Positions 786 through 39,308 of a stretch of 39,308 nucleotides of DNA are shown piece after piece; the first letter of the stretch is position 1, and every line of letters starts with the position of its first letter. Source of the stretch: Shigella phage ESh9. Made by a program: the position numbers and the translations under genes. The notes beneath the pieces are model-generated. The model was not told where the DNA came from. It made no database searches and saw only the letters and a list, made by a program, of their open reading frames with translations. The stretch lies in sequence record ON528722; one strand, given 5' to 3'.

Positions 786-808
786 TCTCCCTTTAGTGAG
801 GGTTTATT
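786..808 (-). promoter_or_regulatory. T3-type phage RNAP promoter upstream of gene 17 (one-mismatch variant)
   Basis: Reverse complement reads AATAAACCCTCACTAAAGGGAGA; overlaps the gene 16 stop. Confidence 0.7.
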
Positions 809-3800
809 GGCGAGGGCGTGTTGCATCATCCTTAATCTTGATGCCCTGCTCTTCGAAGATGTGCATAATCAACTGTTGTGTCAGCGGGTCATTGGGGACA
901 AGCTCACGCATGGAGTTGAACACACCAGTACGGAACTCTACCTCACTCTGCTTACCATCAGAGCTAAGTAGCGTAGAGGCATTCATGGCGGTAGACCCAA
1001 TGTTCCCAACTAGTCCTACAGCTGGTACTTGGTTGGATATCGCCCCTACTATGTTACCCGCAACCTCCTTACCAGTCCAAGCCTTGTTGCGGTCACGTTC
1101 GGTCTTTTCCTTTGGTAACACCGTTGAGCGGGTGTACTGGTAGGTATCATTACCGAACAAGCCACCAATCATATCATAGACAGACAGTGGGGAACCAAGG
1201 TGTGAACTTCTGGATAATGACGCGTGGGCAATCATTTTAGGGTCAAGAGCATTCTTGAGGTACTCCTTACGCTTGTGCTCCTGTAGGCCGTAAGCCTTCA
1301 AGTGCGCCTGAGCAACATAGTAACCACCAGCCAGACCCATAGAGATGATTGCAGTCAGCGCAGAATCGATAGCCCTGTTGTTCTTAGTTGCGTCATAGAA
1401 CAACCTAACGAAGCGCGAGTTAAGAGACTTGATTACGAAGTTCTTAAACTGCATCACCATCTTGACAGCCGCTCCGTAAGCCTTGGTGTCCTGTGAGGAA
1501 ACCTTATGCGGCCTAAGGATAGTCTCATCAGCAACCTTATCAGCCAGACGCCATAAGTCCATAGTCCGTGGGTCATTAGCAAAAGCCTGTTTGTCCCGGA
1601 TTGTAAACTTACCATCAGCATCACGAGTAGCGTGGTCACGGAACAACTGCTTTATTCCCTTCCACTGCTCAGGTGACACAGAGGCAGACTTAAGGTAATT
1701 CGCTTTACCGAACTTAGAGCCTTTCCCAGCGAGCGCTGCCCCAGCCACATCACCCAGTACACCCTGTCTGGCAGCATCGATGATGTAGTTAGAGGTTCCA
1801 TTAAGCAGCATCGTCCAAGGTGAACGCGCAGACAATTCCTGAGTGCCGAAGCGAATAGTCCCAACCACATTAGCCACCACTGCGTTAGTGTCAGTAGACT
1901 CCCGAAGGCGACGTATATGGTCTTCACGCCCCGGACGGATAAGCTGGTCTAGTTCCTTCCCGAACACCATACCATGAATCTCCTTAATCTCAGAGCCACT
2001 CAATGGCCTACTCCTGCTTACCCAATCGTTAAGCAGTGGGATTCCATGAAGTACCGCAGAGGTGTTTCCTTTACTCAACATAGCAGCAACCTCTGTGAAG
2101 TTCTGGAACGGCATGTAGAAGTTCTTAGCGAAGAAAGCCAAGTCAGTCATGGAGCGAAGAATCGTACCGAAAGCTCCCTCTGGGTTCATGCGGGCACGAC
2201 CAGTCAGAATCTTCACGGTGTCCTTGAGTGCTTCGACTTCACCTTTCAGTGAGCCGTTACCCTCAGACTGCTTGTCCAGCGCCATGATTTCATCTTTCAG
2301 TTCCTTCGTCGTCTTACCCGAACCACCCATGATAGCCACGTCACCATCAACTCGACGGTCATAAGCAGGAAGAATGTCAGCCATATCGTAGGTACGCAGG
2401 TCGTTCACAGAGAACGTGCTACCATCCGGGAGAGTCACAGCCATGTCGCTGTCGAACATGTTACGGGCCTCCAAGAAGTTATTGTTCTCGATGCCAACCA
2501 GACCCTCAAGGTTTTCATCAATGATAGAGGATGCAGTGAATTGGTCAGTGTGCGATATACCGTAGGCTTTATCCATGGCGTACTTCTCAGCCATCTGACG
2601 CAGCATCGCCTCTTCGTCTACCTTAGGTTCCACCTTCTCACCAGTGCCAAACTTCTGACGCTCTGAGGGCTTCGCTGGGGCAGAGTCATAGGCTTTACGG
2701 AATGCACGACCATCTGGTGTGCGAACACCACCAACAGTCTCATCCGTACCGCGATACACGTAGTCAGGACTCTCGGTCTCCGCAATGCGATACATCTCGG
2801 TTGCGATACCCTTACGGCGGTACTTCTCGGACACTTCCAGGCTCGGGTTCTGCCACACATCGCCGTCACGTTTAGCGAACTCTACGCTACCCACATGCTC
2901 ACCTTTCTTAGTGAACACGTCGACTGCGAACTCAGCGCCTTCAGCCGTCTTCGCGGTATAGTACACAAAGTCACCATCCACCTTGTACGGAGTCTCGCCT
3001 GAGTAGTCACGCTTACCTGCGAAGTAGTCACCCTGTAGCTCACCATTGGTGACCTTTGTGACACTAGCGGAGTTACCGCCAGTGACTAGGGAGTCAGGCA
3101 TGGCAGGAGTCGCCTCAGAGCCACGCAGGAAGTTCTCAGCGTCCGCAGCAGCTTGTGCTCCTTTGGTTGCCTTCTCGAACTCGTCAGCGTGAAGCTCTCG
3201 GAGGTACTCATCGACTCTCGCCTTGACTTCTGGACGAGCGCGGTAAGATGTAAGCCACGACTCTGCAATTGCCCGTTGTAGTCCCTCGTTACCGTAGCGA
3301 CTCACCATGTACAACTTTATAGCTCGGTCATATACATTAGGCACGTAGGTTCCGTTATGGCGTGAGCCGGGGAATATGCTACGAGCTTTGACGTTCCCGA
3401 AGATAGCAGGGTTTTCCATGAGTTCGCGCTTGAGGTCGAAGTGTTGTTTCAGGATATCCATCACCTTACGTTCTCCCTTTGTGAGTCCTGATTGTAGCTC
3501 TGGTCTCTCAATCGCTAAGGCAGCACGCTTATAGATTTCCTGTCGTACTTCCTTACGGCTCATCTTCACACCACCTGTAGAGAACTCAGGGTCTTTCATT
3601 GCAGTACGCACAGCATCATAAAGCTGATTGTAGGTGCGCTGATTGTTCGCGTGGAGCCGCTCCTTAATGTCAGAAGCAGTAGCACCGAACTTACCGGAAG
3701 TCCCTGACTCCATGCCAGTTGGAGAACGCACAAGGTCACTCGCAATGGAGCGAACAGTCGGGTTCTCAGAGCGGAGAGTCTTCAAGCCAATCTCAGTGAA

Positions 3801-5333
3801 ACCACCCAAAGAGATACCACGAGCGGCACGCTCAGGGTTGACCTCCTCGAACTCGCTAAGAGTCTGAGGGTTCAGCGGGTTGGTGTCGCTAAGGATTTGA
3901 CCTTGAGGCAACACAACGGCACCCGGCTCAGTTTCAAGTGGAGAATAGTTCACCCCGGCATGTTCCCCATCAAAGGAGCGACCATCTGTTGGCATACGTG
4001 TTAAGTCCTCGCCACCAGCTTGAAAGGCAGACTCACGCGCCTCCAGTCGAGTAGCAATGCGGTCGAAGTCGTTACTAACTTGACCAGCGCGAACACGGCC
4101 CAAGGCTGCACTCACACCATCAGCTATTGCGCTCATCCCGGCCCCGAACATAAGACCACCAAGGATTGCATCTTGATAGTGCGCCTCACCACCAGCAACG
4201 GATGTACGAACAGCTTCTGAAACTGCGCTCAAGGCTGCACTTTGGGCACCAACAACGAACGCCTTGTTTACCACCTTGAGACCCTTTCCAGCAACACCAA
4301 CAAGCGGCACATAGCTCAATGGGTCCACACCAGCCCCAACGATTCCACCAACCAACTTCGCTCCCACGCCAGCACCTTGAGTCTTCGCAGCCATAGCCGC
4401 ATTCTCATTAGCCAGTTTAATCAGGTCATCCAAATTCTCTGGGTCTCCTCCAGTAACAACGTTGATGTAGTTTGGGTCTTTTACCTCGTTACGGATACGC
4501 TCTAATTGCTCAGTCGTCCATGTAGTGCTGTTCCATCGAGTTGGGGTAATAGCGTCCTTGAAGATGTCAAAACTATCATCAAAACGCGCAGCATTGAAGG
4601 CAACACCCAATAGCGAGTTATGAAGCTCGGCACTTGTGGTGTCCTTTATCCCGAAGAATGTTGAACGGTTTTCATATTCCTCAACGGTAGTTCCATGTTT
4701 ATCGTAGAAATCCTTAGTGAACGGTACGGCAGGGGCCTGTTGTTCCACACCCTCCAGCTTAAAGCCAGTTGATTGTGGAAGCTCAGTTCCTACCTTCCCG
4801 GCCTTACCGATTCCAGCAAAGGCGTCCTCAGCGGGAATCCCTTTAGCCTTTGGGGTTATCCCACCGAACGCCTCCAAGTCTCCCTTGCGCGGGCTGTTAG
4901 CCACATCGAGAAGTTTACGCATGTAGTTGCGACCCTCCTCGCTGATAGAGGCCCAATCGCCTCGGTCATAAGCCTGCATTTGTGGAGCGCCATTGCGTCC
5001 CTCTCCTTGGTTGTACGCTAGGGCCGCTTTGAGTTCATCCCCGTCGTATTTCCTAACGAGGTCGCTCAGGTGGCGAGCGGCTGCGTCCACAGCCAACTCA
5101 GGGTTGAATCTCTCATCGTCATCTCCCCCTGTAACCTTGAGTCCAAGCCCCGATGCCGTACCTTTAGTGAACTGCATTAGACCTAATGGCCCGGTAGGGC
5201 TTTTGGCTTTCGGATTGAAGCCAGACTCGTTGAACGCCAATTTACGAAGCAGGCCATAGGAGACCCCATGTTCATCTGCCGCTTTCTGAAATAACCCATC
5301 ATACTCAGATGGTTTCGTCTTGTCGTAGCTCAT
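804..5333 (-). CDS. 16: Internal virion (core/ejection) protein gp16 with N-terminal lytic transglycosylase domain; 1509 aa, carries an internal insertion of about 195 aa
   Basis: N-terminus MSYDKTKPSEYDGLFQKAADEHGVSYGLLRKLA...GPLGLMQFT is the T7 gp16 SLT domain; recalled T7 gp16 similarity along the whole length except aa 716-912. Confidence 0.9.
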   Translation of the reverse strand: MSYDKTKPSEYDGLFQKAADEHGVSYGLLRKLAFNESGFNPKAKSPTGPLGLMQFTKGTASGLGLKVTGGDDDERFNPELAVDAAARHLSDLVRKYDGDELKAALAYNQGEGRNGAPQMQAYDRGDWASISEEGRNYMRKLLDVANSPRKGDLEAFGGITPKAKGIPAEDAFAGIGKAGKVGTELPQSTGFKLEGVEQQAPAVPFTKDFYDKHGTTVEEYENRSTFFGIKDTTSAELHNSLLGVAFNAARFDDSFDIFKDAITPTRWNSTTWTTEQLERIRNEVKDPNYINVVTGGDPENLDDLIKLANENAAMAAKTQGAGVGAKLVGGIVGAGVDPLSYVPLVGVAGKGLKVVNKAFVVGAQSAALSAVSEAVRTSVAGGEAHYQDAILGGLMFGAGMSAIADGVSAALGRVRAGQVSNDFDRIATRLEARESAFQAGGEDLTRMPTDGRSFDGEHAGVNYSPLETEPGAVVLPQGQILSDTNPLNPQTLSEFEEVNPERAARGISLGGFTEIGLKTLRSENPTVRSIASDLVRSPTGMESGTSGKFGATASDIKERLHANNQRTYNQLYDAVRTAMKDPEFSTGGVKMSRKEVRQEIYKRAALAIERPELQSGLTKGERKVMDILKQHFDLKRELMENPAIFGNVKARSIFPGSRHNGTYVPNVYDRAIKLYMVSRYGNEGLQRAIAESWLTSYRARPEVKARVDEYLRELHADEFEKATKGAQAAADAENFLRGSEATPAMPDSLVTGGNSASVTKVTNGELQGDYFAGKRDYSGETPYKVDGDFVYYTAKTAEGAEFAVDVFTKKGEHVGSVEFAKRDGDVWQNPSLEVSEKYRRKGIATEMYRIAETESPDYVYRGTDETVGGVRTPDGRAFRKAYDSAPAKPSERQKFGTGEKVEPKVDEEAMLRQMAEKYAMDKAYGISHTDQFTASSIIDENLEGLVGIENNNFLEARNMFDSDMAVTLPDGSTFSVNDLRTYDMADILPAYDRRVDGDVAIMGGSGKTTKELKDEIMALDKQSEGNGSLKGEVEALKDTVKILTGRARMNPEGAFGTILRSMTDLAFFAKNFYMPFQNFTEVAAMLSKGNTSAVLHGIPLLNDWVSRSRPLSGSEIKEIHGMVFGKELDQLIRPGREDHIRRLRESTDTNAVVANVVGTIRFGTQELSARSPWTMLLNGTSNYIIDAARQGVLGDVAGAALAGKGSKFGKANYLKSASVSPEQWKGIKQLFRDHATRDADGKFTIRDKQAFANDPRTMDLWRLADKVADETILRPHKVSSQDTKAYGAAVKMVMQFKNFVIKSLNSRFVRLFYDATKNNRAIDSALTAIISMGLAGGYYVAQAHLKAYGLQEHKRKEYLKNALDPKMIAHASLSRSSHLGSPLSVYDMIGGLFGNDTYQYTRSTVLPKEKTERDRNKAWTGKEVAGNIVGAISNQVPAVGLVGNIGSTAMNASTLLSSDGKQSEVEFRTGVFNSMRELVPNDPLTQQLIMHIFEEQGIKIKDDATRPRQ

Positions 5334-33260: not shown

Positions 33261-33312
33261 AAGTGATAATCATAAAGGCCACACATATAGTGCGACCTTG
33301 AGTCTATCACTT
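33261..33312 (-). promoter_or_regulatory. RNase III-type processing hairpin after gene 0.3
   Basis: aagtgataatcataaaggccac...gcgaccttgagtctatcactt with terminal inverted repeats. Confidence 0.55.
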
Positions 33313-33769
33313 ACTGCACTTGCCAGCGGCGTCCGAACTCGTCAATCGTAAAGCAGCCTTGAAGCGGTGCGCCTTTAGGCACTTCTTGGAAGCTACCCGG
33401 CAGACGTTCAGCCTTGTAACCGTCGATTCCTTTAGCGTACACCAGACCAGCCGTGTGAGTCTGTGATTTGTATACCAGTACGCAATCTTGCTCCCACTCA
33501 TTGCAAGCTAAGCGTGCAACATTGAGTGCCTGCGCCTTGTCCTTGCAGCGTACACGAACCGTTTTTTCCTCAGTCGGTGCGCTTGCGATTGCCTCACGAT
33601 AGCACCCGGTCAAATCGGTTGACTCAACGGAGCCATAAAGACCCGGAAAGGCACGTAAAGTGCTAACCATGTGGCGGTGGCGACTCATGTTCACCTCATC
33701 GTCGAGGTTGGAACGGAAAGCTGACACCAGTACATAGAAGACGTTAGCAGGCTCTTTAGTGAAAATCAT
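33311..33769 (-). CDS. 0.3: S-adenosyl-L-methionine hydrolase/lyase (SAMase), anti-restriction gp0.3
   Basis: 152 aa; MIFTKEPANVFYVLVSAFRSNL...GCFTIDEFGRRWQVQ recalled as T3 SAMase. Confidence 0.9.
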   Translation of the reverse strand: MIFTKEPANVFYVLVSAFRSNLDDEVNMSRHRHMVSTLRAFPGLYGSVESTDLTGCYREAIASAPTEEKTVRVRCKDKAQALNVARLACNEWEQDCVLVYKSQTHTAGLVYAKGIDGYKAERLPGSFQEVPKGAPLQGCFTIDEFGRRWQVQ

Positions 33770-33797
33770 TTGGTGTTACCTCATGTTAGTTCGTGTT

Positions 33798-33850
33798 AAG
33801 TGAATATCATAAAGGCCACGCTTTCAGTGCGACCTTGAGTTATTCGCTTA
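33798..33850 (-). promoter_or_regulatory. RNase III-type processing hairpin upstream of gene 0.3 (R0.3 analogue)
   Basis: aagtgaatatcataaaggccacg...gcgaccttgagttattcgctt. Confidence 0.55.
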
Positions 33851-33955
33851 TACATCGGTACACTCAAGAGCTATTTCCAGATTGTTAAAGAGCATGTCGG
33901 TCTGGTTTCGTTAGACCCTAGCGGCTTTCAGTGTCCCGCCTCACTGTCGTTTCAA

Positions 33956-33994
33956 TGTGGTACATCGTACCGTGCTTACTTCATGTTGTCAACC
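33956..33994 (-). promoter_or_regulatory. Host sigma70 early promoter A3
   Basis: Minus strand GGTTGACAACATGAAGTAAGCACGGTACGATGTACCAC: -35 TTGACA, 17-nt spacer, -10 TACGAT; matches recalled T7 A3. Confidence 0.8.
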
Positions 33995-34065
33995 ATTTTG
34001 TTTAACTTTATGTGCCGTGGTGCGCTTAAGTCACCTAGAAGACACCGAAGCGGTGGTTAACGTTA

Positions 34066-34104
34066 TGTGGTACATCTTACTGCGTTTACTTCATGTTGTC
34101 AATG
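34066..34104 (-). promoter_or_regulatory. Host sigma70 early promoter A2
   Basis: Minus strand TTGACAACATGAAGTAAACGCAGTAAGATGTACCAC: -35 TTGACA, -10 TAAGAT. Confidence 0.8.
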
Positions 34105-34194
34105 CCTGGTTTTCGTATGACTTATCAGGCTGTCTACTTATCCGGTTGACTCCGGTATCTCAGGGAGTGGCTTTAGGCCGTTGTCCCGTTGACG

Positions 34195-34232
34195 TGATGA
34201 ATAATAGCCTTAAAGGTAACTTAAAGTCAACC
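34195..34232 (-). promoter_or_regulatory. Host sigma70 early promoter A1
   Basis: Minus strand TTGACTTTAAGTTACCTTTAAGGCTATTAT: -35 TTGACT, 17-nt spacer, -10 like. Confidence 0.7.
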
Positions 34233-34275
34233 ATTAATTTTAATCTTTTATTAAATCCCTAATTCCCTCTTTAAG

Positions 34276-34298
34276 TATCCCTTTAGTGAGGGTAATTG
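34276..34298 (-). promoter_or_regulatory. T3-type promoter at the genome left end (phiOL analogue)
   Basis: Reverse complement CAATTACCCTCACTAAAGGGATA. Confidence 0.65.
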
Positions 34299-34369
34299 AA
34301 TTGACGATAGACACCATAGACAACTACATGGCATCACTACGGGTTAATAGTGGGTCTATCGGTCTGGTT

Positions 34370-34860
34370 GTCTTTAAGATAGCGCCACTCTTTAGGTGGT
34401 GGCTTTAGGTGGTGGCTTTAGGGTTTACTTTAGGAGTCTAACAGATAGGGACACATAGGGATGTACTATCGAACTGGTACACTAGGACACTCTTTAAGGC
34501 CTCCTTAAGCCATCCGCCACTTTAGGTATTGACTTTAGGCACCACTTTAGGCTATCCTATAGGCCACTTGAGGAGAGACCCAAGGTTAACCGAAGGTTAA
34601 ACCCTAGGGGGTAGGGCTGGCTTTAGGTGGCTTTAAGAGGGCTATGGGGGGTACTTGGGGTTCTTGAACTGTGAGATACCCATTCAGATTTTTGTGGTAA
34701 ATTCTTAAAGGGTCTCTTTAGGAACCCACTTTAGGTAAGGCCACACCATAGGTGAGACCATAGGCGCATCCCGAAGGGATAGCTAGGAGACACCAGAAGA
34801 CCCTGTAAGACCATTGCGAACTACAGGGCATCTTTAGGTATAACCTTTAGGGTTGACTCT
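34370..34860. repeat. Arrays of short CTTTAGG (CCTAAAG on the coding strand) repeats in the genome-end / concatemer-junction region
   Basis: About 15 dispersed 7-mer copies, e.g. ctctttaggtggtggctttaggtggtggctttagggtttactttagg; T7-group genomes carry such repeats beside the terminal repeat. Confidence 0.75.
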
Positions 34861-34933
34861 ACAGGGATGAGTAGGTGTAGTGAAACTATACCTACGAATC
34901 CCTCAGAGCCGCTTGTCGGTCATCAACAATAAT

Positions 34934-35083
34934 TTAATCCCCACAAGAGAGTATAGAGCAAAAGGCCACTTCCAGTTGACCGAGGTGGTCAGTAAGACCT
35001 GCGTACCCAAGGGTAGCAGTAAGTACCAGAAGAAATCGCCAAGTGACTCTATGACGCAGTAGGGCAATCAGCAAGCGCAACAT
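34934..35083 (-). CDS. 19.5: gp19.5 (49 aa)
   Basis: SD AAAGGAGGTG then ATG at 35083; MLRLLIALLRHRVTWRFLLVLTATLGYAGLTDHLGQLEVAFCSILSCGD matches recalled T7 gp19.5. Confidence 0.75.
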   Translation of the reverse strand: MLRLLIALLRHRVTWRFLLVLTATLGYAGLTDHLGQLEVAFCSILSCGD

Positions 35084-35223
35084 TGAGCCACCTCCTTTCA
35101 GTTGCTCTAAGGTAGGGTGATTATACAATGATAATATCACCAATCATAGAGGAGACTTAAAGTGCATAAAGGGTCATTGCATAACCTGAATGACTAACCT
35201 ATATAGTAGCTTTAAGTCCCCTC

Positions 35224-35247
35224 TCTCCCTTTAGTGAGGGTTAATTC
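35224..35247 (-). promoter_or_regulatory. T3-type promoter near the genome right end (phiOR analogue)
   Basis: Exact reverse complement of AATTAACCCTCACTAAAGGGAGA. Confidence 0.8.
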
Positions 35248-35326
35248 AAACTCATTGATTCTTAAGGAATTTCTTAAAGTGACCATCCGTGGTCTAATTG
35301 AATCCTTATGCGCTCAATATGCATAA

Positions 35327-37090
35327 CTACCAGTCAATGAACCTGTTGCTATTCACATCGTCATCCTCCCAATAGAGTTCCATACCGTCAACCATAGAGG
35401 TGACTACGTGACCAGCCGAATGGATTGGGTGCTCCATGTGTTCCTCTAAGAACGCCTCAAGCACCTCAGCCTCCACCTTCACGGCGTCCAGTTCCATCGT
35501 AGAGCGTAAGAACTCCACACCCAATGCTAACGCATCAAGTCGGTCATCATGGGCCACAGCGCCCTTCTCACGGGCCATACGGGTCAACTGGTAGAACAGC
35601 GAATAGCGAACGTCATGCTTGCCATCAGCGTCACGGGCAGTCTGGTAGTCCTCACGAATCACCTCATCACGAATCACAAGGCGGTGCGTAGAGAGCACAG
35701 GTTCCAGCGTATCACAAATGCGTAGTTCCTTCATACCACGAGCGCGAATCTCTTCAAGTTGCGCTGCATGGTGTTTCAGGAGCACAGGGCTGAATACCTT
35801 ACCAAACATACCATCCCCGAAGTTACTCTCGAAGACCACTGTCTGAACCTTCCACTGCTTCGCTTTCTTAGCGAGGGACTCAAGGGTCTTATCGGAATAA
35901 CCATCGCGGAACCCGCCAGCTTCCATCAGATAGATGTAGCCGTTCAGGGTGAACAACACTGCGTAACCAGTCTCATCCTTACCGCGACCACTAGGGTCAA
36001 TCACGAGGATGCGTTGCTGGTACTGTCCAGTGTTCTGGCTGCACGAATGATAGCTATGAATATCATCACCCTTAAGTCCCACGTTAGGAAGCTCTTCATT
36101 GCGATTCTGACGGTTCGGAAGCCACTGGTAATGCATTGGGGCTTTCTCGAAGTCCAGACCGCACACGATAGCGTCACGGAGGCGTAAGGGGTACTTCTCG
36201 GCATCACTCAGGTTCGGGTTGAGCATGAACTGCAAAGTGAAGCCAGCCTTACCGTATTCCAACTCACGCTCACGTAGGTCTTCCATATCGAAGCGCACGG
36301 GGTCAGTCGGTTGACCTTGAAGCATCTCGAACCCATCGTTGAACTCTTCGCGGAGCATCGGGGCCAGACGGTCGCCATAGTACAAGTCTTCCTCACGGCT
36401 ACGCGGATAGAGCGCAGGCCAGATTATTGTGGTGTACCCACGGTTATCTTCGAGTTCCTTGTACAAGGTCATTTCGGTTTGAGGCGTGCCAAGGTAGATA
36501 ACGCGAGAAGTAGGCAGCGGTTTCAGAAGCGCAGCAAATTCCTGCACCAGAGTCCACAGCTTCTCACGGGCACCTTGAGTTGCGGAGTTAGACGGAATCT
36601 CAACGTCATCCGCTATGATGATATCAGCACGGCTACCAGTCAACTGACCAGTGATACCCACCGACTTCACAGACGGAGAGTGGTCAGGCTTGGCAGGGCC
36701 AACATCGAAACTAATCACAGAGTCACGCTGACCGGGGCGAGGCTTTAACTCAGCCAAGAAGGGCAGCAGGTCAATGATGTTCTTGATGAAGATGGAGTTA
36801 GCGTCCGCACGTTCTTTGGATGCAGAGACAATCAGTATCTTCAACTGAGGGTCACGCCATAACGTCCACACAACGAACGCACAGGTGATGAATGACTTAC
36901 CGATACCACGGAAAGCCTGTAGGATAAACTTCTTGTTGTCTCCGTTAGCCAGACACCGGGCCATATCAATCTGACACTTAGTCGGTGGCGGGAGAGCCAA
37001 AGCCTTCCACAATACGAACAGGAAGGCCACAAAGTCGCCCTTAAGCTGCGCGATGATTAGCGCATTACGGTTTGCTTGGGTGTCGCTCAT
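35327..37090 (-). CDS. 19: Terminase large subunit gp19
   Basis: 587 aa (T7 gp19 is 586 aa); Walker A-like GIGKS; synteny. Confidence 0.95.
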
Positions 37091-37517
37091 TCTGCATCTC
37101 CTTAATAGTACGCTGGAGCGCTCTTACGTGAGCATCAGCAGCTTGGGTTATTCCGATAATACGCTTAGCATCTGACTCGTGTAGTTCGGCTCGACCATTA
37201 AACTCGCATCTACCGTTATCTTCTGGTAGTCCGGTAAGGGTCTTGATGCGGACTGACAGCCGCTTATTATTACTACGCAGGTCATTAAGCATCCTATCAG
37301 TGCTGCCTTCAATGGCTGCAATCTCTTCTTGGTACTCACGGGATACCCGACTGACCTCTGCCTGAGTTGCTGCGGTTGCTTTTGTTTTCGCAATGTATTC
37401 ATTTTGGATTACCTCCTTCCAGTTTGCTCTCTCATGGGTTGACCCTAAGTGCCAGCCACCCATAAAGAGTGTCCCGGCGAGTACCCAAGGGAGTGCGCTG
37501 CGTAAAAGTTTTAGCAT
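37065..37517 (-). CDS. 18.5: Rz-like i-spanin gp18.5
   Basis: N-terminal [16 protein letters not shown] then coiled-coil; ATG at 37517 with SD GGAGGT; track ORF begins at an upstream TTG. Confidence 0.8.
37148..37402 (-). CDS. 18.7: Rz1-like o-spanin gp18.7, embedded in gene 18.5 in another frame
   Basis: Lipoprotein signal with lipobox ...VVIISGC; ...[19 protein letters not shown] matches T7 gp18.7. Confidence 0.8.
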   Translation of the reverse strand: MNTLRKQKQPQQLRQRSVGYPVSTKKRLQPLKAALIGCLMTCVVIISGCQSASRPLPDYQKITVDASLMVEPNYTSQMLSVLSE

Positions 37518-37875: not shown

Positions 37876-38079
37876 TTACTCCTTGTTTGCACGTTTCCAG
37901 TCAATAATTTTATCAACTACCTTGGCACCAATCTGAACCACTGTGTAGGCGATAGCTGCAACGTAGAACCATTCGTTTAACGATAGTCCCCAAAAGAGTC
38001 GGGCCGCACCATCAGCGACCCCTGTGCCAACAATAGGCGCAGCCTTAACGACCTCATTGTTGAAGTCGAAGGATAACAT
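37876..38079 (-). CDS. 17.5: Holin gp17.5
   Basis: 67 aa; MLSFDFNNEVVKAAPIVGTGVADGAARLFWGLSLNEWFYVAAIAYTVVQIGAKVV matches T7 holin. Confidence 0.92.
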   Translation of the reverse strand: MLSFDFNNEVVKAAPIVGTGVADGAARLFWGLSLNEWFYVAAIAYTVVQIGAKVVDKIIDWKRANKE

Positions 38080-38090
38080 TTAACACCTCC

Positions 38091-39308
38091 TTAGTCTGTC
38101 GTAAGTTTAGATTCAAGCTCCTGAACGCGAGCGTCTAGGTTCTTAACAAGCAGCATTAATCCGCCAATTATCTGGTTAGGGTCTGGAGACTGCATACCAT
38201 CGCTCATTATATCAACCGCCTCTGGCCAGATTCGAATCAAATCCTGTGTTATAAAACCAGCACGGGAGCGCTTACCAGTGATAGTAATGTCGCGTCCACG
38301 GTTATCCTTATATGCTGAATCCTTATACTTATAAGACACTGGTATGTATGCCCGAATGATGTTCAACATGTCGTCAGCAGAGCGAACAACCTTAATGTCT
38401 TCTTTCAGCCTTCTGTCTGACTGGAACCAGCGGAACCCAACGGATGTACCATCAACGTTACCCTCAATGTAGTCCGCGCCACGGCCTGTGTACAGGCGAA
38501 CCCCAGCAGGAGGTTTGGCGAATCTGTAGTTGTCGTTGAGCATTCCCCAAAGGTTGCCACCAACGTTGTTCCATACGCCACCGCTAAGGTTCCCATCTGG
38601 GTTTAGTATCGCGTTGCCCATTCCTGCGTAGAGGTTCTGACCAACGATATTGTTGTTCCCCTCAATGCGGGCACCGGAATGAACCTGTAGGTGGTTTGCG
38701 TGGAGCGCAGCGCCTCCGGTAATAACCACTCTACCAATCTCTACCGTGTTCTCAGCATTAACTGTGCGGAACACGAATCCGCCAGAACCAGCACCACGGT
38801 TGGTGATAAAGTTTGACTCACCGCTACCACCACTTTCGTTCCATCCAATATGTAGACCCTGCCGTTGTCCAACATGTTGTGGATTGTTGTCAATGTGGAG
38901 TCGGGACAGCTTATTATAAACGTTTGGTGATAGTGTTTGATTAATGCCTCCCTGAGCATATGTGACCCCAGCCACGGTGATGTTTCGCTGAGAGTACATA
39001 TCCCGCTTTGCGGTAATATCCCTTTCAACAATCAAGTCCTCTCCAACAAGCGCACCTTTCTGGATACTCGCCGCACCTGTGGAGACTAAACCACCGCCTG
39101 TGACGTTCTGGGTAGTCACGAGTGCCCCTTTGAACCACACGTTTACGCCTTCAACCTTGTCGATTGTACCAGCAAACTCATTCATGTTTCCCAGCTTACT
39201 AGCCTCAGTGATTGCTCTCTCCTCGGAGGCCTTAGCGTTGGTCTCTGATACCTTAGCGGCAGCAGCCGAGTTAGCAACGCTCCCTTCTGAGGCCTTAGCA
39301 TTGGTCTC
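38091..39308 (-). CDS. 17: Tail fiber gp17, C-terminal part: coiled-coil shaft, glycine-rich distal domain and C-terminal intramolecular-chaperone-like module
   Basis: Open frame runs off the window end; ...NMNEFAGTIDKVEGVNVWFKG aligns to T7 gp17 ...AGAIDKVDGTNVYWKG; the distal part differs from T7 and ends with an SDRRLKEDI module. Confidence 0.85.
   Translation of the reverse strand, partial: ETNAKASEGSVANSAAAAKVSETNAKASEERAITEASKLGNMNEFAGTIDKVEGVNVWFKGALVTTQNVTGGGLVSTGAASIQKGALVGEDLIVERDITAKRDMYSQRNITVAGVTYAQGGINQTLSPNVYNKLSRLHIDNNPQHVGQRQGLHIGWNESGGSGESNFITNRGAGSGGFVFRTVNAENTVEIGRVVITGGAALHANHLQVHSGARIEGNNNIVGQNLYAGMGNAILNPDGNLSGGVWNNVGGNLWGMLNDNYRFAKPPAGVRLYTGRGADYIEGNVDGTSVGFRWFQSDRRLKEDIKVVRSADDMLNIIRAYIPVSYKYKDSAYKDNRGRDITITGKRSRAGFITQDLIRIWPEAVDIMSDGMQSPDPNQIIGGLMLLVKNLDARVQELESKLTTD

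Follow-up and report, generated by a model that had tools for sequence, protein, structure and literature searches.

The genomes of phages T3 and T7 join via their terminal repeats (TR) during replication, and the resulting concatemers contain one TR per junction. For T7, the arrays of short repeats beside the 160-bp terminal repetition were reportedly described by Dunn and Studier in 1983, together with the genome sequence, and named SRL and SRR. Clustered short repeats that are recognized by terminase are known from other phages, namely the hexamers of P1 pac, the R sites of lambda cosB, and pacL/pacR of SPP1, and for these sites the binding of the recognition subunit and the requirement for the repeats have been shown. 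According to a 2026 review, how T3/T7-type phages produce their exact terminal repeats is understood less well than packaging of the cos or headful type (PMC13595956). Among the sequence features without an explanation at the place where this occurs, the heptamer arrays stand out most.

We analyzed such a region in a DNA of 39,308 bp, the whole of which is referred to as the window. The closest described systems are phages T3 and phiYeO3-12 (Teetrevirus; NC_003298 and NC_001271), which share with the window the gene order, the phage promoters phiOR and phiOL, the host-type promoters A0-A3, a TR of 230-232 bp with the same ends, the sequence ATCTGTT right after the TR, and arrays of the heptamer CCTAAAG in a single orientation with 12-13 bp spacing. 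Relative to T3, the window has one additional 13-bp unit in SRL, a TR-internal CCTAAAG in place of the CCCAAAG of T3, a 23-bp insertion in SRR, and a 10-bp deletion just downstream of phiOL. The number of CCTAAAG copies in the equivalent interval is 12 in the window, 9 in T3, 13 in phiYeO3-12, and 13 in T7, with none on the other strand, and the motifs TCTCA(C/T)AG and GTCCCT↓ATCTGTT (the arrow marks the cut) are common to all four phages. T7 also resembles the window in the word itself, in its single orientation, in the preferred 13-bp spacing, and in the presence of copies inside and beside the TR, but its TR is 160 bp rather than 230 bp long, and of its heptamers, a larger number (8) lie downstream and a smaller number (2) upstream of the TR than in the window.

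The concatemer junction of a T3-like genome

All large open reading frames (ORFs) of the window are encoded on the minus strand, in an order as in the T7 group, and a search with 33700-35400 identified as nearest records T3-like phages of Escherichia, Klebsiella, Salmonella, and Serratia with at most 95.8% identity. The reverse complement of 33300-35400 is collinear with a composite of the T3 right end, one TR, and the T3 left end (2,120 columns, 91.6% identity). In the T3 record, the TR is annotated at 1-231 and 37978-38208, and the T3 termini have been derived from high-frequency read starts in sequencing as TCTCATAGTTCAAGAACCCA and GTACATCTCTATGTGTCCCT (PMC3896407). At the corresponding positions, the window reads TCTCACAGTTCAAGAACCCC and GTACATCCCTATGTGTCCCT, matching the T3 termini at 18 and 19 of 20 bases, respectively. 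Because the boundaries match these termini, we place the TR by homology at 34676-34447 on the minus strand, where its 230 bp read TCTCACAGTTCAAG...CCCTATGTGTCCCT on the coding strand. The initial annotation had regarded the region as a genome-end junction, a reading that is well supported by the collinearity with the T3 ends and by the matching boundaries, and it can be considered nearly certain from these alignments that the region represents a concatemer junction of a T3-like phage (genus Teetrevirus), with the ends joined by the assembler via the shared 230-bp TR. The opposite idea, that the region is not a genome end but an internal intergenic repeat or an assembly artefact, can hardly be correct: the T3 ends with which it is collinear have mapped termini, many linear records of relatives stop exactly where the homologous TR ends, and the gene order leads from genes 19/19.5 on one side to gene 0.3 on the other. 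Our analysis found no support for that idea.

The TR sequence is single-copy in the window, and no terminal overlap, end-to-end repeat, or long internal repeat was detected in the window. In a search with a 700-base query consisting of the last 350 and the first 350 bases, the window end and start were contiguous in the tail-fibre gene of the relatives, and gene 17 forms a single ORF of ~650 aa across the window join (38091-39308 plus 1-~800). Because the window ends are contiguous inside this gene, the window is a complete T3-like genome with one collapsed TR that was circularized by the assembler, opened inside gene 17, and deposited in reverse orientation. The single terminal-region copy that had been attributed to a collapsed assembly is thereby confirmed. 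The TR is predicted to be present at both ends of the virion DNA, which would result in a length of 39,308 + 230 = 39,538 bp, and for annotation purposes, the record should start at 34676, follow the minus strand, and include a 230-bp direct terminal repeat. As a consequence of the artificial window break, gene 17 is split, and the ORF list contains only a truncated piece of 364 aa.

On the coding strand, i.e., the minus strand, to which all elements of the following map belong, the junction is bordered upstream by gene 19 (35327-37090), whose ORF and annotation in relatives identify it as the gene for the 587-aa terminase large subunit. It is followed by phiOR, a T3-type phage RNA-polymerase promoter (AATTAACCCTCACTAAAGGGAGA, 35224-35246) that is directed toward the junction and that has one mismatch to T3 phiOR (37432-37454), and by gene 19.5 (34934-35083; 49 aa plus stop), which aligns to T3 gene 19.5 and is found by tblastn in related loci. 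Between gene 19.5 and the TR lies the right-end repeat region SRR (34677-34933). It contains the 23-bp segment that distinguishes the window from T3 (34765-34787), in which ATCCC-TTC-GGGAT (34768-34780) could form a hairpin, and this segment is found in 15 of the 18 T3-like junctions but not in T3, phiYeO3-12, or the locus L008. SRR ends with a 35-bp block (CCTTTAAGAATTTACCACAAAAATCTGAATGGGTA↓, 34677-34711) directly upstream of the left-end cut and the TR. Downstream of the TR follow the class II pause/termination signal ATCTGTT (34440-34446) and the left-end repeat region SRL (34299-34439), which extends to phiOL, another T3-type phage promoter (CAATTACCCTCACTAAAGGGATA, 34276-34298; T3 phiOL 366-388) with an AT-rich stretch behind it. 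The early promoters for the host RNA polymerase, A1 (34230-34201), A2 (34102-34074), and A3 (33992-33964), each match the consensus at 10/12 positions and align as a group (33964-34230) with the A1-A3 annotation of T3, and an extra CCTAAAG is found among them (34171-34177). The first gene past the left end is gene 0.3 (33311-33769) for a 152-aa S-adenosylmethionine (SAM) hydrolase, as supported by the ORF and by the annotation of T3 and other relatives.

The interval 34300-34930 between gene 19.5 and phiOL had been described as non-coding, and we agree with this, as the only ORFs there have 37-40 codons. The indels at the junctions of relatives are 10, 13, and 23 bp long, none of them a multiple of three, and two small ORFs that were considered as coding (34286-34408 on the plus strand and 34718-34831 on the minus strand) were rejected on the grounds that they are disrupted by the 13-bp and 23-bp indels of the relatives. 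In several deposited genomes of relatives, such as L091 (OR896841) and L094 (MZ428229), four to seven short "hypothetical protein" genes are annotated on the non-coding strand across the junction, in regions homologous to 33800-35300 of the window. Since the indels shift the frame, these gene calls are very likely spurious.

Heptamer arrays and their conservation

The heptamer CTTTAGG has 18 exact matches in the 39,308 bp, as compared to 4.05 ± 2.04 in shuffled sequences (maximum 9). Twelve of these copies fall into 462 bp (34390-34851), where about 0.05 are expected, and they are all on the plus strand, i.e., they read CCTAAAG on the coding strand; the remaining six are scattered over the genome. 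The region 34300-34930, which had been noted to be packed with CTTTAGG, is thus indeed highly enriched, and it additionally contains five one-mismatch variants in the same orientation (CTTTAAG three times, CTATAGG, and CTTGAGG). The 12 junction copies are split into four upstream of the TR, four inside, and four downstream. In SRR, they form two doublets with 13-bp spacing (34845-34851 with 34832-34838, and 34729-34735 with 34716-34722), which are positioned at -175/-162 and -59/-46 from the TR start. The TR-internal copies are found at 34621-34627, 34545-34551, 34533-34539, and 34520-34526, and the SRL copies at 34428-34434, 34416-34422, 34403-34409, and 34390-34396, corresponding to +12, +24, +37, and +50 past the TR end. 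Tandem Repeats Finder detected CTTTAGGTGGTGG with a period of 13, 2.5 copies, and 100% match at 34390-34422 within SRL, and this 13-bp array accounts for the tandem gtggtggctttag units of the initial annotation. Its statement that the repeats flank the TR requires a correction: it holds for the eight copies outside, four on each side, but four of the 12 lie inside the TR.

As both virion ends carry arrays, with SRR and the TR at the right end and the TR and SRL at the left end, these positions would also fit contacts with capsid-internal or portal proteins that hold the first- or last-packaged ends or regulate how ejection begins, without being involved in cutting. However, about half of the copies of each junction are hundreds of bases away from the DNA tip, and such contacts leave the conserved offsets from the cut sites unexplained, which makes this a highly improbable function.

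When the repeat spacing is compared with T3 and T7, as had been suggested, the 12-13 bp spacing recurs in the same heptamer arrays, and the repeats are not missing from relatives, being present in T3, T7, phiYeO3-12, and all 18 T3-like junctions that were compared. The arrays represent a known hallmark of T3/T7 genome ends, and their recognition in the window is correct but ordinary, as a phage with 91.6% identity to T3 in this region is not a distant member of the group. The link of the heptamers to concatemer processing is one that we infer from their position. In the literature searched on heptamers and concatemer processing, we found no paper that tests a function of CCTAAAG, and within the junction, experiments back the TR, the class II pause site beside it, and the packaging site, not the heptamers.

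Conservation analyses gave indications of constraint. In the window, in 91 distinct T3-like contexts, and in 51 T7-like contexts, the flanking bases of the heptamer are near-uninformative, and since they carry almost no information, the unit is the 7-mer itself. Ten of the 12 junction heptamers are identical in at least 17 of 18 T3-like genomes, including all four SRR copies, which are invariant. Among these 18 genomes, 86% of the heptamer columns are invariant, as compared to 72% of the other junction columns (Fisher p = 0.007, uncorrected for relatedness). In the SRL arrays, the heptamer stays steady while the 6-bp spacers differ at up to 5/6 positions (CCACCA, CCATCA, CCTCCA, ACCAGA, and others). 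In comparison with the T7 junction, which is only 62.6% identical, four heptamers are aligned start to start, and still each of the two junctions has 12-13 copies.

The same comparisons also show turnover of whole units, and we therefore had to consider that the heptamers are functionless by-products of replication slippage or unequal recombination, and that only the TR, the boundary blocks at the cuts, and the pause site matter. The 13-bp units are gained or lost among close relatives, as seen between the window and T3, with a range of about 2 to 7 SRL units across the T3-like genomes, and because this range is tolerated, SRL needs no fixed unit number. In the locus L022, four tandem units all read CCTAACG (CCTAACGACCAT four times), which looks like the amplification of one mutated unit rather than selection, as expected from slippage. 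In 27 Klebsiella-phage-like junctions, heptamer columns are conserved to 59% and other columns to 50%, a difference that is not significant (p = 0.22). Short-repeat variation in the interval from the left TR to the first phage promoter has been reported as microevolution in Yersinia T7-like phages (PMC5923468); these fPS phages belong to a different clade than the window, and the copy number of the short repeats beside their TR varies among close relatives in the same way as in the group of the window (PMC5923468). What slippage does not explain are the dispersed copies with unrelated spacers, i.e., the SRR doublets that are invariant in 18 genomes and the TR-internal copies, and neither does it explain why, despite the turnover of positions, the word is the same and the copy number similar in the T3-like and T7-like lineages. 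We therefore regard an origin of the heptamers from slippage without any function as rather unlikely.

Another possibility concerns transcription. The pause signal ATCTGTT (34446-34440) is the only sense-strand copy in the 39.3 kb, it starts at the next base after the TR (which ends at 34447), and it is found at the same position in T3, T7, phiYeO3-12, and 42 related loci. It forms the core of the signal at which T7 RNA polymerase undergoes class II pausing or termination, and the concatemer junction is where this signal occurs naturally (bioRxiv 10.1101/2021.01.11.426313, 10.64898/2026.02.12.705533). ATCTGTT overlaps with a TGnTA extended -10 motif (TGTTA), and the TGnTA motif of the T7 junction has recently been shown to give host-promoter activity. 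Inside the TR, a consensus scan detected an A0-like leftward host-type promoter on the plus strand (TTGACT-18-TATCCT, 34529-34558), which corresponds to the annotated A0 of T3 and overlaps two heptamers, one of them with its -35 element. The heptamers could thus act by modulating the phage RNA polymerase near the pause site, or as parts of host promoters (A0, TGnTA), and this would agree with the orientation of every copy along transcription, with the host-promoter activity at the T7 junction, and with the expected stop 6-8 nt past ATCTGTT, which coincides with bases 1-3 of the first SRL heptamer (34434-34432). However, ATCTGTT alone defines class II pausing, and no heptamer is less conserved than exactly this first SRL copy (CCTAAAG in 7/18, CATAAAG in 9/18, and CTTAAAG in 2/18 T3-like genomes). 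Furthermore, most heptamers are not near any promoter-like site, and no RNA family matches the region (Rfam, no match up to E = 1 in 33700-35400). A role of the heptamers in transcription is therefore improbable.

Heptamer words and cut-site blocks in other clades

We recovered 80 loci with the terminase protein as query, and among these, CCTAAAG is confined to the T3-like and T7-like phages. Klebsiella phages have CCTGAGG and CCTTAGG, Escherichia phage P694 and its relatives have CCTTATG, Pectobacterium phage Jarilo has CTATCAG, the Yersinia phages Yep-phi and Berlin have 15 copies of CTCTTAG, and other loci have CCTATGG, CCTAAGG, CCTAATG, or CCTTAAG. In the fully examined clade junctions, the repeats again have a single orientation, and their spacing is often 11-13 bp. 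Their offsets are recurrent as well: a doublet precedes the TR by about 46-59 bp, and an array begins about 12-60 bp past it, with values of about -57/-46 and +20 in clades that have another word. Hence the clustering of short repeats near both cuts, as seen in the window with the doublet at -59/-46 and the array at +12 to +50, has its counterpart in other clades. A different word at similar offsets implies that the dispersed copies change together between clades, and such a joint change of dispersed copies is not explained by slippage either.

In contrast to the word, which differs between clades, two blocks at the cuts are kept across clades. At the left cut, this is CCTTTAAGAAT..ACA.AAAAATCTGAGTG..TA↓TCTCAYAG, an ungapped consensus from 68 loci with 54 distinct sequences, and at the right cut it is TCTCTGTGTCCCT↓ATCTGT, from 42 loci. 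The 35-bp block at 34677-34711 is thus a candidate for the recognition sequence of the left-end cut. In our reading, the core signals for cleavage are the boundary blocks, to which the heptamers add a lineage-specific, accessory layer.

The word and the overall identity of gp18 and gp19 do not go together. The T7-like phages, whose gp18 is 72-77% identical to that of the window, share CCTAAAG, whereas clades with 77-81% identical gp18 use other words, and because gp18/gp19 identity does not separate the clades by word, we do not nominate a reader protein. Neither do the heptamers determine packaging specificity, since T3 and T7 share the word and yet each of them favors its own DNA in packaging (Yamagishi et al., 1985, cited from PMC3276506).

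It is possible, although we hold this with some doubt, that the heptamers constitute a lineage-specific recognition code in which orientation, 11-13 bp spacing, and offsets are kept while the word changes, mostly within a CCT-NNN-G frame, to which CTATCAG of Jarilo and CTCTTAG of Yep-phi/Berlin are outliers. Such a code would demand a phage-encoded reader with sequence specificity, in co-evolution with the word, and this reader would have to differ from gp18/gp19 in its overall similarity pattern and would have a role in the cutting or duplication of the TR.

Mimicry of phage promoters was a separate idea, based on the similarity of the T3 promoter core ACTAAAG to CCTAAAG and on the position of the Jarilo word CTATCAG within a promoter-like sequence. 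It was dropped, as the pattern does not hold in T7 and the Klebsiella-phage clade and no GGG follows the heptamer.

A model for the junction and further sequence features

In our view, the observations are together best explained by a junction mechanism in which the heptamers may serve as sites for the maturation machinery, and we consider this explanation to be probably correct. According to this model, late transcription by the phage RNA polymerase would cross the TR and pause at ATCTGTT, and the paused polymerase-lysozyme complex would recruit terminase and prohead; both steps are established for T7 and are extrapolated to the window from the conserved signal. The polymerase-lysozyme complex paused at this site is thought to contact gp18 and gp19 and thereby to lead to maturation (Zhang and Studier, 2004, as cited in a passage of PMC3276506). 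Terminase would then cut at ...GGGTA↓TCTCACAG and at ...GTGTCCCT↓ATCTGTT, and DNA synthesis would duplicate the TR. The heptamers, as iterated 7-bp sites in one orientation with 12-13 bp spacing and unconstrained spacers on both TR flanks and inside the TR, may help a multimeric maturation component, with terminase as the first candidate, to assemble on the junction and to place the two cuts. That they are iterated binding or architectural cis-acting sites for the DNA-maturation machinery is a plausible proposal that we make tentatively.

With P1 pac, lambda cosB, and the SPP1 sites, the junction has in common that a short word is clustered in several copies to either side of a terminase cut. 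Unlike these systems, it has two cuts, 230 bp from each other, and the segment that they enclose is duplicated. The heptamers do not resemble the iterons of replication origins, which neighbour the gene of the initiator protein that binds them, as no initiator-like gene is adjacent and the neighbours are terminase, gene 19.5, and the SAM hydrolase.

Within the TR, the sequence TTAACC-TTC-GGTTAA at 34586-34600 (minus strand, position +76) is an inverted repeat that could form a hairpin. An equivalent is found at +64 to +76 in T7-like, Klebsiella-phage-like, and T3-like clades, in total in 47 of 82 loci (including L015, L017, L024, and L029), with the arms TTAACC/GGTTAA, TAAACC/GGTTTA, GTCAACC/GGTTGAC, or GTCAACT/AGTTGAC depending on the clade, and the changes in both arms preserve the pairing. 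This hairpin might be relevant to the duplication of the TR. A C(UUCG)G tetraloop had also been considered, but this form was not found by our search, and the real form is a stem with a TTC loop. Where the TR ends on the right, the genome's final bases (34447-34455) read TGTGTCCCT and contain GTGTC, 4 nt from the 3' end of the strand, which we take to be one of the preferred recognition sequences of the T7 primase, and its position near the tip could allow priming very close to the genome end.

The TR also contains two poly-C runs (34605-34660), which vary from 5 to 8 C among T3-like genomes, and poly-C variation inside the TR has likewise been reported for the Yersinia fPS phages (PMC5923468).

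Outside the junction, the ORF of the internal virion protein gp16 (804-5333, minus strand) encodes 1,509 aa, as compared to the 1,318 aa of T7 gp16 (PDB 7eyb, chain I). The protein contains an insertion at about residues 720-912 (2594-3176 of the window, minus strand), and this segment is covered in only 13 of 1,255 phage records with a gp16 match, for example in Klebsiella phage P7246 at 92.9%. The insertion matches GNAT models, namely Acetyltransf_1 with 24.4 bits (cut-off 20.7) and four other GNAT families, and it is possibly an acetyltransferase domain on an ejected protein.
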